NCBI GenBank assembly: GCA_903888395.1
Contig: CAISTO010000076.1
Location: forward strand, 1 to 33,647
Direction: 5' to 3'
DNA length: 33,647 nt
DNA from: an uncultured Bacteroidota bacterium
GTDB lineage: Bacteria > Bacteroidota > Bacteroidia > UKL13-3
The notes below the pieces were generated by a model. It made no database searches. It was not told the DNA's origin and saw only the letters and a program-made list of their open reading frames with translations. Positions 8,791-17,728 of this stretch are shown one piece after another. A program made the position numbers and the translations under genes. The stretch's first letter is position 1, and each line of letters opens with the position of its first letter.

Positions 8791-10386
8791 TTACTTATTA
8801 GTATACTTCAAATTCAAAAAAGTAAATATACTTGAGCATGGTAAAGCAAAAGATAATCCTTCTACACCCTTATCAATAACTTTTAATGTAATTACTCCTA
8901 ATACCAATCCATCTTTGTTAATTAATGGGCCACCACTATTTCCTGGACTAACACTTACATCTGTTTGAATATATGACTTATCGTCTAATAGCCTATTGCC
9001 ACTAACTATTCCTTTACTTACTGTTTGAGATAGTTTTTGATTGGATGGCGTTCCAATGGCATAAACTTCAGCACCAATTTGATTGTTATCTTCACTTTCT
9101 GATAATAAAAAAGGTTTGAATCCATTGCCACTTACTTTTATCAATGCTAAGTCATTGTTGATATCTGTTCTTATTACATCGCCAACAAATGATAGGTTGT
9201 TTGATAAAATAATATTTACTTTTTTACTGTTTTTAACAACATGGTAATTGGTAACAATCATTCCGTTTTCAGAAATAAAAAAACCGCTTCCATGTCCACT
9301 GTTATCGCCTGTTGTAACAGTTACCACTGATGAAGTTAAATCTTTTAAGTTAAGTTTATTTGCTTTAGTAGGTTTTTGAATTGTAATTACCTCTCCAATA
9401 GAAGTTTCTAATAACTCCTCTGTATTTTTTTTTGTATTTTCATAAAGCTCTTTACTGTTTGATAAAAACATTAAGAAACTATTTTCAAAGGAACTTAAAA
9501 GGGAGTTATTTAATCCGATAGATTTATCTAAATTGTAAGATTCAATGACTTCGGTTTTAACTAATTCATTGGTTAACAAATTGGTTAATGTCCATTTGGT
9601 AGTTAGTTTACATTCCACATTTTTTAAAGATAAACCAAAGTCGTTTTTTATATCTATTCCTTTAATTTGTGCTTCAATTTTATAGCCATTATTATTAAAT
9701 TCCTTTGGAACATTAAATCCATAATCTTTCAACGAGTTATTTACAATTACTTCTAATTCTTCTGATTTAACGTTGACAGTATTTTCCCATAAAATATCGG
9801 AATACTCCTTTCCTTGAAAAAAGTTGGTGCCTATTTTTTCTCCAATTTTTATTTTAATATTCACATCTGAGCAACCAATTGGCAATTGATTTTTAAGTTC
9901 GTTTGTTTTAGGAATTTTTACTCCATGCCAAATAATCTTGTTAGCATATAGTTTTTTGTTTGCACCCGAAAGCGCATCGAAAGAAAAGAAAGCCGCGGGT
10001 ATTGCAAATTGCATCAGCATAGCAGTATTTAAACGAGACATTTGCCCGCCATCTGCATTATTTCCAATGCTCGCATAGAATGGAAAAGCCAATATCATAC
10101 TGGCAAAATTTAAAAAAATTTTTGGATTTACTTCTGGATAATAATTTGAAACAACATCTTTATATCCTTCTTTTTTTAAAACAACAGTATGCTTTTTGTT
10201 AGATGCTAGTTTAATAAAACCAGATTCAATGATTTGTTTTTTTTCATCAACAATAACAGAAGTACTATCATCCATATTTAAATTTATTTTAGTGGTGTTG
10301 CCTGAAAAAATAGTAGCACAAGATGAAAGTATAACTAAAATAGAAAATAGTATTGTAATTGATAGATTGATGTTTTTATTTTTCAT
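8791..10386 (-). CDS. Lipoprotein-signal S1C (trypsin/HtrA-like) serine protease without a PDZ domain
   Basis: Signal peptide with lipobox LSSC; PEGA-like segment (HTVVLKKEGYKDV); two hydrophobic segments. C-terminal triad motifs are TNYHVV (His), NDLALIKV (Asp) and GNSGGPL (Ser). Confidence 0.85.
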   Translation of the reverse strand: MKNKNINLSITILFSILVILSSCATIFSGNTTKINLNMDDSTSVIVDEKKQIIESGFIKLASNKKHTVVLKKEGYKDVVSNYYPEVNPKIFLNFASMILAFPFYASIGNNADGGQMSRLNTAMLMQFAIPAAFFSFDALSGANKKLYANKIIWHGVKIPKTNELKNQLPIGCSDVNIKIKIGEKIGTNFFQGKEYSDILWENTVNVKSEELEVIVNNSLKDYGFNVPKEFNNNGYKIEAQIKGIDIKNDFGLSLKNVECKLTTKWTLTNLLTNELVKTEVIESYNLDKSIGLNNSLLSSFENSFLMFLSNSKELYENTKKNTEELLETSIGEVITIQKPTKANKLNLKDLTSSVVTVTTGDNSGHGSGFFISENGMIVTNYHVVKNSKKVNIILSNNLSFVGDVIRTDINNDLALIKVSGNGFKPFLLSESEDNNQIGAEVYAIGTPSNQKLSQTVSKGIVSGNRLLDDKSYIQTDVSVSPGNSGGPLINKDGLVLGVITLKVIDKGVEGLSFALPCSSIFTFLNLKYTNK

Positions 10387-10590: not shown

Positions 10591-12186
10591 TTAGTTAGCT
10601 TGGCTAGCTTTTGGAGCTGCGTCTAATATTTCTTGGCTTACACCGCTGGAGTATTGATCAAAGTTTTTAACAAACATATTTCCCAATTTATTTGCTTGTG
10701 CATCGTAAGCATCTTTATCAGCCCAAGTATTGCGTGGATTTAATATTTCAACGGGTACATTCGGACAAGTAGTTGGCATTTGGTAACCAAACACTGGATG
10801 TTGTTCAAATGTTACATTATTTAACTCACCGTTTAACGCTGCAGTAATCATGGCACGTGTGTATGATAATTTCATACGTGAACCAGTTCCATAAGCTCCA
10901 CCACTCCAACCTGTGTTAATTAACCAAACATTTACATTAGGATTATCTTTTAATTTTTTACCTAATAATTCAGCGTATTTTCCTGGGTGTAAAGGTAAAA
11001 ATGCTTTACCAAAACAAGCGGAGAAAGTAGCCGATGGCTCAGTAACACCAGCTTCTGTACCCGCTACTTTAGCAGTGTAACCACTAATGAAACTATACAT
11101 GGCCTGGCCTACATTTAATTTAGAAATTGGAGGCAATACACCAAAAGCATCTGCTGTTAAAAAGAAAATGTTTTCTGGCGTTTTTCCTACCGAAGGCACA
11201 GCAATATTATCAATTAAATTAATTGGATAAGCAGCACGTGTATTTTCAGTTACTGAAATATTTGTATAATCAACAGTAGAAGTTCCTGGAATAAAACGCG
11301 TGTTTTCAACCAATGAACCAAATCGGATGGCATCAAAAATTTGAGGCTCTTTTTCTTTGGTTAAGTCTACACATTTTGCATAGCAACCACCTTCAAAGTT
11401 AAATACTGAATCTTCAGCCCAACCGTGCTCATCATCACCAATTAACTTACGATCTGGATCAGCACTCAAAGTAGTTTTACCCGTACCCGATAAACCAAAG
11501 AATACAGCAGTATCGCCATTTTTACCAATGTTTGCCGAGCAATGCATTGATAAAGTATTGCGCTCTTGAGGTAATACATAGTTTAACACAGTGAAAATAC
11601 CTTTTTTCATTTCGCCTGTGTAACCGCTACCACCTACTAAAATAATTTTTCTTGAAAAATCAATGATAGAGAAGTTATGTTGACGAGTTCCATCTTCAGC
11701 AGCAATGGCTTTAAAGCTTGGCGCATTTAAAATTAACCATTCTGTTCCAAAATTAGCTAACTCGCTAGCTTCAGGACGAAGGAATAAGTTATTACAAAAT
11801 AAATTATGGTAAGCAGTTTCGTTTACAACAGTTACATTCAATCTGTAACGAGGATCAGCACAAGCATAAGCATGACGCATATATACTTTTTTACCAGCGT
11901 AATGAGCAATTACTTTGTTCATTAATTTTTCAAATTTATCGCTTTCGAAACGATTATTAACATCGCCCCACCAAACTGTGTTTTCAGTTTTAGCATCCAC
12001 CACACAAAATTTGTCTTTAGGCGAACGGCCCGTAAATTCACCGGTATCGGCCATTAAAGCACCAGTGTCTGTTAATAAGCCTTCGCCATTAATAATTGCA
12101 TGGCTAACTAACTCAGCTGGGGTAAGGTTTTGGTGTGCAGATGAAGCGCTTTCCAAAATCCTATTTACGATTGAAATATTTGTCAT
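10591..12186 (-). CDS. pckA: Phosphoenolpyruvate carboxykinase (ATP)
   Basis: 531-aa ORF with the kinase-1a motif FFGLSGTGKTTLS and a full-length ATP-dependent PEPCK pattern. Confidence 0.96.
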   Translation of the reverse strand: MTNISIVNRILESASSAHQNLTPAELVSHAIINGEGLLTDTGALMADTGEFTGRSPKDKFCVVDAKTENTVWWGDVNNRFESDKFEKLMNKVIAHYAGKKVYMRHAYACADPRYRLNVTVVNETAYHNLFCNNLFLRPEASELANFGTEWLILNAPSFKAIAAEDGTRQHNFSIIDFSRKIILVGGSGYTGEMKKGIFTVLNYVLPQERNTLSMHCSANIGKNGDTAVFFGLSGTGKTTLSADPDRKLIGDDEHGWAEDSVFNFEGGCYAKCVDLTKEKEPQIFDAIRFGSLVENTRFIPGTSTVDYTNISVTENTRAAYPINLIDNIAVPSVGKTPENIFFLTADAFGVLPPISKLNVGQAMYSFISGYTAKVAGTEAGVTEPSATFSACFGKAFLPLHPGKYAELLGKKLKDNPNVNVWLINTGWSGGAYGTGSRMKLSYTRAMITAALNGELNNVTFEQHPVFGYQMPTTCPNVPVEILNPRNTWADKDAYDAQANKLGNMFVKNFDQYSSGVSQEILDAAPKASQAN

Positions 12187-15878: not shown

Positions 15879-16568
15879 TTAGTATTCAATTTCCAATTCC
15901 AGCAATTGTCTTAATGTAGCTAAATTTGGATTTTGTTCCACCATTTTGTTAAATTTATCTTCTACCGAAAGCGATTTTGTTTCGGGAATTAATGTATTAT
16001 CTACTTCAAAATCTAAGTTTATTTGCGTGTTTTTTAAATTAATTCTAAAAAACTGCAACGCATTTAAACGTTGGTCTTCGCACAAAGTTCTTTCGTGATT
16101 ACTGGCAAAAATTACACTAATTTTATCGTTCTCGTGAATGACTAATTTGCGTTCTTTCATAAAGCTTAAACTTGCTTTATCTAGTTGTGCTATAAATGCA
16201 ATCCATGCATTATTTAAATCGGTTTCGGTATAAGCTTCATTCTGATTTACTACTACATTTTCTATTGAAGTTTCTAAATCATCATTGTTTGAAATATTTG
16301 TTTCCGATTTCAATTTTTCAGCAATTTGCTCTTTCTTTTGTATGAACAAATCATCTGTTTTTTTTCCAAACATTCCACCTGTTTTTGCAATTGTTGGCAA
16401 TGGTGTGGCAACAGGTTTTGGCTCCTGAACAATGCTTGAAATTTCTGAAACTGACGTAATCGAATTTGTGTTGGTAGCTGTATTTACAGGAGTTAACACT
16501 GAATTGGTAGCAGCATTTTTAGTTGATTCTGCTTTTATATCAGTAGCAGAATCAGAAAAATCAACTAT
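15879..16568 (-). CDS. dnaX: DNA polymerase III tau C-terminal portion, in the -1 frame relative to the upstream dnaX ORF
   Basis: The frame is open from the A-run at 16568 through the listed ORF 15879-16499. The C-terminal segment (KFNKMVEQNPNLATLRQLLELEIEY) resembles the Bacteroidota DnaX C-terminus as I recall it. Confidence 0.7.
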   Translation of the reverse strand: MVDFSDSATDIKAESTKNAATNSVLTPVNTATNTNSITSVSEISSIVQEPKPVATPLPTIAKTGGMFGKKTDDLFIQKKEQIAEKLKSETNISNNDDLETSIENVVVNQNEAYTETDLNNAWIAFIAQLDKASLSFMKERKLVIHENDKISVIFASNHERTLCEDQRLNALQFFRINLKNTQINLDFEVDNTLIPETKSLSVEDKFNKMVEQNPNLATLRQLLELEIEY

Positions 16569-16577
16569 TTTTTTTTT
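16524..16577 (-). promoter_or_regulatory. dnaX: Candidate recoding site: A10 slippery run, 0-frame TAG and a downstream 10-bp hairpin
   Basis: Minus strand reads TTA AAA AAA AAA TAG (A-run 16577-16568). Hairpin tgattctgct (16554-16545) / agcagaatca (16533-16524) has an 11-nt loop. Confidence 0.55.
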
Positions 16578-17728
16578 AAGTCAACGTTACTATTTTGTAA
16601 GTTGATATACGATTGAATATGGCTTAATTTCATTAAGCATAATTCTACGTGCAGCCTCGCATTTTTCGATGATTTATAATCAAGCTCGCATTTGTTTAAT
16701 AAATTCAATGCATTTAACATCAGCGCTGTATTACACGATTTGGCTTGCTCCAAAAACTTAACTGAAACACTTTGAGAAACCTCTAAAAGTTTAACAGTAT
16801 CTGGATGTTTGCAAACCATTAAATTACGAATATGTTCGCTGAATCCACCAATGAAATGTAAGGCATCAAAACCATTGTTCAATATATCATCGAACAACAA
16901 AAGTAAACCAGCTAAATCTTCGTTTAACAATAAATTTACTGCTTTAAAATAATAATCGTAATCGAGTATATTTAAGTTATTAATTACATCTTGGTATTTA
17001 ATATTATTTCCGCTAAAACTTACAATTCTATCAAAAATAGAAAGTGCATCGCGCATGGCACCATCTGCTTTTTGGGCTATAATGTGCAAAGCATCATCTT
17101 CAGCAATGATGTTTTCTTTATCGCAAATTTCACGCAATTGTTTTACGGCATCTTCAATTTTTATTCTATGAAAATCAAAAACCTGACAACGAGAAATAAT
17201 GGTTGGTAAAATTTTATGTTTTTCGGTAGTTGCTAAAATAAATTTAGCATAAGGAGGCGGTTCCTCTAAGGTTTTCAAAAATGCGTTAAATGCATTTGCA
17301 CTTAGCATGTGAACCTCATCAATGATGTATATTTTATAAGTTGCTCCTTGTGGCGCATAACGAACTTGATCAACCAAAGCCCTGATATCATCTACAGAGT
17401 TATTGCTGGCGGCATCTAATTCATAAATATTAAATGAGGCGTTGTTATTAAATGCATTGCAACTATCGCAATTGTTACAAGCTTCTAATTCAGGAGTTAG
17501 GTTGGTACAATTTATAGTTTTTGCTAGTAACCTAGCAGACGTAGTTTTACCTACACCACGAGGTCCGCAAAACAAAAAAGCATGTGCTAAATGTTTGTTT
17601 TTGATGGCATTTTTTAACGTTTGTACTACATGACCTTGGCCAATTACGGTATCAAAACTTGCCGGACGATATTTACGGGCCGAAACCACAAAATTTTCCA
17701 TGTCCGCAATTAATTTTATTTTTTCCAT
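16565..17728 (-). CDS. dnaX: DNA polymerase III subunit gamma/tau, N-terminal ATPase ORF (gamma-like 387-aa product in the 0 frame)
   Basis: Walker A CGPRGVGKTT, Zn module C-x8-C-x2-C-x2-C (CTNLTPELEACNNCDSC), Walker B IIDEVHML, sensor SRC. Confidence 0.93.
   Translation of the reverse strand: MEKIKLIADMENFVVSARKYRPASFDTVIGQGHVVQTLKNAIKNKHLAHAFLFCGPRGVGKTTSARLLAKTINCTNLTPELEACNNCDSCNAFNNNASFNIYELDAASNNSVDDIRALVDQVRYAPQGATYKIYIIDEVHMLSANAFNAFLKTLEEPPPYAKFILATTEKHKILPTIISRCQVFDFHRIKIEDAVKQLREICDKENIIAEDDALHIIAQKADGAMRDALSIFDRIVSFSGNNIKYQDVINNLNILDYDYYFKAVNLLLNEDLAGLLLLFDDILNNGFDALHFIGGFSEHIRNLMVCKHPDTVKLLEVSQSVSVKFLEQAKSCNTALMLNALNLLNKCELDYKSSKNARLHVELCLMKLSHIQSYINLQNSNVDLKKK

Follow-up and report, generated by a model that had tools for sequence, protein, structure and literature searches.

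In this work we address the question of how a dnaX gene that is divided between two open reading frames (ORFs) could provide the long tau form of the clamp-loader subunit in addition to a short gamma-like form. The gene lies on a contig of 33,647 nucleotides (nt) from an uncultured Bacteroidota bacterium (CAISTO010000076.1, assembly GCA_903888395.1), the whole of which is referred to here as the window; coordinates are given in window numbering and dnaX is read on the minus strand throughout. Comparison with related sequences supports the view that this is a functional dnaX of the split type, in which the 0 frame would encode a gamma-like protein and the C-terminal third of tau would be encoded in the -1 frame. 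Tau is probably made mainly through slippage of RNA polymerase on a T10 template at the boundary between the two parts, a reading to which we assign a probability of about two in three.

The dnaX Gene of the Window Is Split at a Run of Ten A's

The junction is made up of the following features.

17728 to 16565, minus strand: 0-frame ORF of dnaX, a gamma-like clamp-loader ATPase comprising domains I-III, 387 amino acid residues (aa) from the ATG at 17728
16577 to 16568, minus strand: run of ten A's (A10; T10 on the template) at the gamma/tau boundary, the proposed site of slippage or shift
16567 to 16565, minus strand: TAG of the 0 frame, adjoining the A10 run, at which the gamma-like product terminates with ...DLKKK
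16563 to 16561, minus strand: TGA of the +1 frame, seen on three-frame translation, where AAT AGT TGA shuts this frame two codons past the run
16568 to 15879, minus strand: continuation in the -1 frame, 229 codons and a TAA (15881-15879), encoding the tau linker and C-terminal domain
16499 to 15879, minus strand: separately listed ORF contained in the -1-frame continuation, with a GTG start at 16499, 23 codons past the run

Re-reading of the sequence confirmed the junction GAC TTA AAA AAA AAA TAG of the original prediction at exactly these positions, the minus strand being ...GTT GAC TTA AAA AAA AAA TAG TTG ATT... in this region. Three-frame translation also bore out the claim that the -1 frame is open through the run into the ORF 15879-16499. 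Across the run this frame reads KKK IVDFSDSATDIKAESTKNAATNSVLTPVN... (KKK-IVDFSDSATDIK...) and remains open to the TAA at 15881-15879, and joining of the 0-frame and -1-frame parts gives a product of 616 aa. Because the +1 frame is shut by the TGA at 16563-16561, only the -1 frame leads onward, and the same early closure of the +1 frame is found in all split relatives. A single A10 run was seen in the window, compared to 10.4 ± 5.6 in dinucleotide-preserving shuffles, indicating that long A/T runs are avoided in this genome of 32% G+C, and this sole A10 run is located exactly at the junction of the gamma and tau ORFs.

Both ORFs Together Correspond to a Complete DnaX

The N-terminal ORF matched the Pfam families DNA_pol3_delta2 (PF13177, E 2.5e-44), DNAX_ATPase_lid (PF22608) and DNA_pol3_gamma3 (PF12169), in each case above the gathering threshold, and a score of 434 bits was obtained for the N-terminal part with the NCBIfam model dnaX_nterm (TIGR02397). 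When the fused protein of 616 aa was compared to NF011531 (PRK14971), the model for DnaX of the Bacteroidota type, it reached 729.2 bits at a curated cut-off of 685, with residues 10-614 aligning to positions 1-613 of the 614 positions of the profile. Furthermore, the fused product is collinear with a continuous relative of 579 aa (P0009) from the start to the last residue, and for this reason the downstream ORF is assigned to the tau-specific linker and C-terminal domain. The end-to-end match to NF011531 and the collinearity with P0009 agree with the earlier identification of the two ORFs as a gamma-like DnaX ATPase and the C-terminal region of tau. A domain of the family PF28557 (DUF8439) was found both in the downstream ORFs of split relatives and in full-length DnaX proteins.

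Relatives of less than 90% identity, as well as the family model, begin at the sequence MENFVV, which corresponds to M10 of the window product (ATG at 17701-17699), and the nine-residue N-terminal extension MEKIKLIAD is present only in relatives of at least 90% identity. In view of this conserved start, translation may in fact begin at 17701, and the real products may be of 378 and 607 aa instead of 387 and 616 aa. Public records of the species (MEI7979508.1, MBJ7428690.1, MCF8428961.1) describe a 378-aa 'DNA polymerase III subunit gamma/tau' beginning at M10; slippage is not mentioned in their names, and the downstream tau part is called as an ORF of its own.

The Split Is Shared by Close Relatives

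It had been considered in the original prediction that the interruption might simply be a homopolymer length error, the true run being A11. More broadly, the split might be an artefact or a sign of decay, that is, a mis-called A11, a recent frameshift or pseudogene, or phase variation at the DNA level, and homopolymers are indeed error-prone in some sequencing chemistries. The exact 387-aa product of the window occurs on 17 contigs, and 74 proteins from assemblies of NCBI, JGI, ENA and Logan fall into its 90%-identity cluster; those listed have 378 or 387 aa, except for one fragment of 84 aa. All assemblies of the species agree on A10 in the DNA consensus. Clusters at 83-99% identity contain exclusively proteins of 378-387 aa, as does the cluster at 78% identity, and no full-length DnaX more than 81% identical to that of the window was present among the best hits of a search in 5.8 billion proteins.

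Relatives that were fetched at 78-99% identity are all split at A10 or A11 (at 83-99% identity, each of them at A10), and all of them need the -1 frame, which is open for 192-231 codons in each. Their junctions differ in detail, being CTA-A10-TAA in L081-L083, TTA-A10-TAG in L089, A10 with a stop five codons on in L085-L088, and A11 followed by ATA GTG TAA in L091 and L092. That the same run and the same frame relation are kept with such different stops and flanks argues that the arrangement is maintained by selection. Even the closest continuous relative (L090, 80% identical) has retained A10, at 2632-2641. No uninterrupted close relative without an A-run came to light, there being none above 81% identity among the best hits and an A10 in the one at 80%.

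A 78% relative on a Logan contig (L173, 1379-1399) has a junction run of about 21 A's, with a 0-frame product terminating in ...EKKKKKKKLIT. This A21 may reflect a real expansion or an error of assembly, and its implausible length can be cited in favor of an artefactual origin of the split.

The tau product of dnaX is essential in E. coli. The window has an intact tau part with homology over its full length. Dozens of contigs, drawn from four data sources, carry the same truncated product, the split is kept at 78-99% identity with differing stop codons and flanks, the -1 frame is open in the relatives and a continuous close relative is lacking among the best hits from 5.8 billion proteins. Sequencing error and pseudogene formation were therefore rejected, dozens of independent assemblies together with the conserved split exclude the homopolymer length error, and we consider an origin by artefact or decay hardly credible.

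The A-Run Is Conserved Throughout the Phylum

For a phylum-wide scan, one genome per species was used, providing 80 Bacteroidota dnaX loci (L001-L080). A run of A9-A13 (mode 10) was present at the homologous site in 62 of these genomes, located at codons 345-392 and mostly consisting of exactly ten A's. Of the 62 run-bearing loci, 48 encode the tau part in the 0 frame, 12 in the -1 frame and two (L049, L063) in the +1 frame. In every case, the two frames that do not lead to tau are shut within 1-15 codons of the run; the 48 continuous-ORF loci have runs of A9-A11, and the 12 split loci of the -1 type have a 0-frame stop within 1-6 codons, as in the layout of the window. In a second set of 80 loci from metagenomes, the run was present at the site in about 48, among the matches listed; all of the listed matches had at most 65% identity, and they served as an independent replicate set, not for covariation. 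The conserved element is the run itself, and by comparison of the sequences it is the register of tau relative to the run that drifts.

The alignment of Bacteroidota dnaX genes that had been called for in the original prediction hence shows that the A-run is conserved, but neither the immediate stop nor the hairpin downstream of it (see below) is. Direct adjacency of the TAG, which had been regarded as a classic feature of recoding, does not hold in general, as TAA or TAG stops are found 0-8 codons past the run in other lineages.

In principle, the two ORFs might also be expressed as separate proteins, a gamma-like ATPase and a free tau C-terminal protein, the latter formed by re-initiation at GTG 16499 or nearby and without any recoding. 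Gene callers do annotate two genes in all split relatives, and the GTG is situated only 23 codons past the run. However, in every split locus the open stretch of the downstream frame begins inside or ahead of the A-run and not at a start codon, and in L085-L088 there are about 70 open codons ahead of the first called start. Separate expression also leaves unexplained why an A9-A13 run marks the junction in all cases and why the run is kept in continuous-ORF relatives. In E. coli, the C-terminal domains of tau must be covalently tied to the clamp loader in order to connect it with the polymerase and the helicase. Separate translation of the C-terminal ORF was rejected on account of the frame that opens from the run and of the run conserved in continuous genes as well, and we regard it as very unlikely.

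A few loci of the phylum scan deviate from the common pattern. In L049 (4098-4107; a Paludibacter metagenome-assembled genome, MAG) and L063 (4096-4105; Bacteroidaceae), dnaX is split at A10 and tau is in the +1 frame, so that one A would have to be lost or two gained for tau to be made; both loci have a strong stem-loop that ends 1 nt 5' of the run. In L041 (4060-4180; Bacteroidales MAG), the +1 frame holds the rest of the tau part and there is no nearby A-run, which could be due to another shift site or to an assembly error. Three Bacteroidales MAGs from gut or rumen (L050, 2788-2790; L060, 4099-4101; L065, 4102-4104) have a dnaX without A-run but with an in-frame TAG at codon 366-367, after which the tau part continues in the same frame (...P-stop-IARSPQ...). 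In these three, 14 nt (CATAGATTGCWAGG) are invariant amid a variable linker, and the neighbouring ORFs look ordinary. To judge from the sequence, this TAG looks like a third route to gamma and tau, by programmed stop-codon readthrough; no reports of such a route for dnaX were found in the literature searched.

Slippage of RNA Polymerase Is the Probable Route to Tau

According to the proposed mechanism, RNA polymerase would slip at the T10 template and generate a mixed mRNA population. The unslipped A10 messages, as well as A9, A12 and A13 messages, would give rise to gamma-like proteins terminating with ...LKKK, ...LKKNS, ...LKKKNS and ...LKKKK, respectively. Messages with A11 (also A8 and A14) would join both ORFs and would lead to tau by ordinary translation (...LKKK-IVDFSD...), and a single gene would in this way provide a fixed mixture of gamma-like and tau subunits. 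Slippage may be modulated by a stem-loop of the nascent RNA that would form 3 nt behind the run. We infer from the comparative data that slippage takes place at the level of transcription, as well as the ratio of the products and any role of a hairpin in it.

Two mechanisms had been offered originally, an extra A introduced at transcription and a -1 shift of the ribosome, and the comparative pattern favors the former for three reasons. Firstly, the run is held at 9-10 or more A's, not at a heptamer, matching the length of the RNA-DNA hybrid, which is 9-10 base pairs (bp) for bacterial RNA polymerase; slippage at A9 has been shown experimentally in Thermus dnaX (PMC5009743). Secondly, tau is found in any of three registers at the run. 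Thirdly, no conserved downstream stimulator is apparent (median z about 0 for 21 split loci). Location of tau in differing frame directions at the same run is used as a criterion for transcriptional realignment in PMC3711429, and here tau is located in the 0, -1 and +1 frames in 48, 12 and 2 genomes, respectively, in all cases at A9-A13. Likewise, the A10 of the window lies within the range of homopolymers of at least nine residues that characterizes programmed slippage.

For Thermus thermophilus dnaX, transcriptional slippage at A9 is known to make gamma (Larsen et al., 2000, as cited in PMC5009743 and PMC3711429). The Bacteroidota genes resemble it in having poly-A at the gamma/tau boundary and nearby stops in the frames that do not lead to tau, and one gene would likewise provide both subunits through heterogeneous mRNAs. 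An exactly Thermus-type layout is found in 48 of 80 Bacteroidota genomes, which suggests that gamma would be made by slippage in most of the phylum. The window is reversed with respect to Thermus, where the unslipped mRNA encodes tau and the slipped one gamma, since in the window tau needs +1, -2 or +4 A's.

Structures Downstream of the Run Are Not Conserved

The other mechanism, programmed -1 ribosomal frameshifting on A_AAA_AAA, would act on a faithful A10 mRNA, on which Lys-tRNA would slip while the slow TAG occupies the A site, and would be aided by a hairpin located downstream.

16554 to 16545 and 16533 to 16524, minus strand: downstream hairpin, a perfect 10-bp stem with an 11-nt loop, 13 nt 3' of the run

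In the window the heptamer is in phase and the stop comes next. Folding of the downstream hairpin yielded -13.4 kcal/mol (z -4.0), better than 200 of 200 dinucleotide shuffles, and a competing inverted repeat of 14 nt (16567-16554 / 16533-16520; 86%) would pair the TAG and the next 11 nt. Structure downstream of the run is also predicted in L081 (z -4.6) and L089 (z -2.1), in sequences that are not homologous to that of the window. In E. coli, dnaX employs -1 frameshifting at A_AAA_AAG, with a stem-loop that begins 6 nt after the shift site. A ribosomal mechanism has been suggested for Chlorobium phaeobacteroides, where the run is A7 only, and poly-A tracts are known to make ribosomes slide (PMC4363877).

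The 10-bp hairpin of the original prediction is real, but it is kept only in a 99% relative (L084), and a general role as a stimulator is not supported. At its position, relatives of 90%, 84% and 83% identity (L081, L083, L085, L089) have unrelated sequence, and when the 70 nt 3' of the run were analyzed for the 21 split loci mentioned above, no tendency to fold was seen on average. The hairpin was therefore rejected as a conserved frameshift stimulator; its distance of 13 nt from the run also differs from the 6 nt in E. coli dnaX. Although the two systems have in common the gene, the boundary between domain III and tau, a slippery site rich in lysine codons and two subunits (for the window, proposed), the shifted product in E. 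coli is the short gamma, and the E. coli signals, a heptamer with a final G, a Shine-Dalgarno-like element 5' of it and a stem-loop shortly downstream, are neither present nor conserved in the window. Thus, the heptamer A_AAA_AAG is absent, the run being followed by T (A_AAA_AAA TAG), and the 20 nt upstream (AAAATAGTAACGTTGACTT) contain no GGAGG-like stretch that could serve as a Shine-Dalgarno-like element. Lacking both of these as well as a stem-loop close downstream, the window cannot be considered to have an E. coli-like cassette, and this candidate was rejected. Moreover, the run is kept at 9-10 or more A's phylum-wide though a heptamer would do for ribosomes, L049 and L063 need the +1 frame at A10, and a hairpin immediately 5' of the shift site reportedly weakens -1 frameshifting (PMC6321510). 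Altogether, we judge programmed ribosomal frameshifting to be unlikely as the main route to tau, while a -1 shift of the ribosome may contribute alongside polymerase slippage.

A Stem-Loop Is Predicted Immediately Upstream of the Run

16605 to 16581, minus strand: predicted upstream stem-loop, UCAACUUAC-AAAAUA-GUAA(C)GUUGA, ending 3 nt 5' of the A-run

For the window, this stem-loop has a predicted stability of -6.5 kcal/mol (z -2.5), which was equalled by 5 of 200 shuffles. A compensatory pair, UUAC/GUAA in the window versus UUGC/GCAA in 90% relatives, supports it, and the same hairpin is present in L081 and L083 (z -3.5 and -4.0). In L089 (84%) a re-registered stem of 9 bp, UCAAUCUGC/GCAGGUUGA, was obtained (z -4.8). 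Over the phylum, the end of a stem-loop recurs 0-5 nt 5' of the A-run, with compensatory changes. When the 36 nt 5' of the run were folded for 68 non-redundant loci, the mean stability was -6.9 kcal/mol, compared to -4.3 kcal/mol for controls, for which 20 windows from the same gene were taken per locus (Wilcoxon p 2.7e-7). The site was in the lowest decile of its own controls in 43% of the 68 loci, and the last paired base was usually 0-4 nt from the run. In a replicate with 40 metagenome loci, the site was more stable than a window 150 nt upstream in 37 cases, the mean dinucleotide-shuffle z being -1.37 versus -0.13 (hand-compiled values). By these analyses the upstream stem-loop is a candidate modulator in the nascent RNA that may tune polymerase slippage.

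An analogous arrangement has been described for the IS630 transposase of Roseiflexus, where slippage is stimulated by a stem-loop of the nascent RNA (Penno et al., 2015, as cited in PMC5009743). In that system the stem-loop lies directly 5' of the slippage motif, so placed as in an intrinsic terminator, and an analogous layout is predicted for Bacteroidota dnaX. The Roseiflexus motif is T5C5, it does not slip without the hairpin, a GC-rich stem borders it directly, and the product is one base short (PMC5009743). In contrast, the A10 of the window should slip alone, its predicted stem is weak and separated from the run by a 3-nt spacer, and tau needs an added base.

Several observations speak against polymerase slippage, or against a part of the upstream stem-loop in it. 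A_AAA_AAA is also slippery for ribosomes, and a -1 ribosomal shift yields the same main tau (KKK-I) as one added A. The significant downstream structure of this lineage, in the window and less so in L081 and L089, could aid a ribosomal shift. The hairpin of Roseiflexus promotes the loss of one base, whereas tau here needs the gain of one base or the loss of two. The window's own stem-loop upstream of the run is of low stability and rich in AU, and the stem is absent from the 83% relatives L085-L088. In the metagenome replicate, one family accounts for half of the second batch, and the effect in the more diverse first batch was modest (mean z -0.73 versus +0.04). RNAalifold found no consensus structure in the upstream regions of 25 Flavobacteriales-type sequences. 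A direct count of the pairing expected from the named structure, made next on these sequences, speaks in its favor: the paired fraction of cells was 78%, compared to 36-58% with slid partners, and changes on both sides were found in seven cells, a value matched by 2 of 500 shuffles.

A tentative proposal, which we hold to be possible yet rather doubtful, is that Bacteroidota dnaX carries a conserved cassette of two parts, a nascent-RNA stem-loop 0-5 nt before the A10 and the run itself, in which the hairpin would set the frequency and the direction of slippage. The layout of the cassette resembles an intrinsic terminator, but with A's; a terminator scan found none at the dnaX junction. If this proposal were true, lineages would be free to shift tau among the registers 0, -1 and +1, as is observed, some Bacteroidales that lost the run would reach both products through TAG readthrough, and dnaX would be the first housekeeping-gene case of hairpin-assisted programmed transcriptional slippage.

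Comparison With Other Genes Interrupted at Poly-A

Split dnaX genes whose tau requires recoding at poly-A have been described by Antonov, Coakley, Atkins, Baranov and Borodovsky (2013; PMC3711429), who reported 17 genes from 12 genera, the class having a poly-A run of A7-A10 between its two ORFs and nine of the genes having A10. Their examples comprise Flavobacterium johnsoniae, F. psychrophilum, Cytophaga hutchinsonii, Capnocytophaga ochracea, Chlorobium spp. and Coraliomargarita, and split dnaX is mentioned again in the review of Atkins et al. (2016). The class includes the same phylum, and transcriptional realignment was inferred for it by analogy with Thermus. That class shares its layout, in which the 0 frame closes shortly past an A10 at the junction of two adjacent ORFs and tau follows in the -1 frame, with the window, where poly-A at the junction, the stop after the run, tau in -1 and conserved position and direction were all found. 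Differences are the uncultured Bacteroidota lineage and the direct A10-TAG junction of the window, as compared to a stop a few bases later. The 'inverted polarity' of the original prediction, with tau as the form that would be recoded, is not new, being known for those 17 genes; as the split type was published in 2013, the window adds a new lineage to a known arrangement. An upstream stem-loop and retention of the run in continuous-ORF genes are not reported in the available part of Antonov et al. (2013). Possibly new are the wide conservation of the run among continuous-ORF genes, the variants with tau in the +1 register and the stem-loop 5' of the run, and these features derive from related loci, not from the window alone. 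No experimental test of recoding in a split dnaX was found in the literature searched.

Frameshifted genes at poly-A tracts are also known from Buchnera and Blochmannia, where they are rescued by polymerase infidelity (cited in PMC5009743). As proposed for the window, an ORF broken at a long A-run regains its product there via slipped transcripts. However, the endosymbiont cases are scattered, lineage-specific by-products of genome decay, whereas the dnaX run is at one fixed, meaningful site and is conserved phylum-wide.

Other Features of the Window

Scans of the window with Rfam models and for tRNAs gave no matches. Two adjacent ORFs of 531 aa each (8791-10386 and 10591-12186) were considered as a related pair, and this was rejected because they proved unrelated on comparison.

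Implications

In public annotations, the gene of the window and many of its relatives appear as a 'gamma/tau' protein of 378 aa and a DUF8439 ORF that looks unrelated to it. On paper, the annotations of these lineages consequently lack the essential tau, which is corrected once the A-run junction is recognized. A single homopolymer would encode the choice between tau and gamma, and it would take no more than one altered base next to it to exchange the subunit made by default. With data covering the phylum, dnaX of the Bacteroidota offers a testable system for the tuning of RNA polymerase slippage, in which the upstream stem-loop is a candidate regulator.

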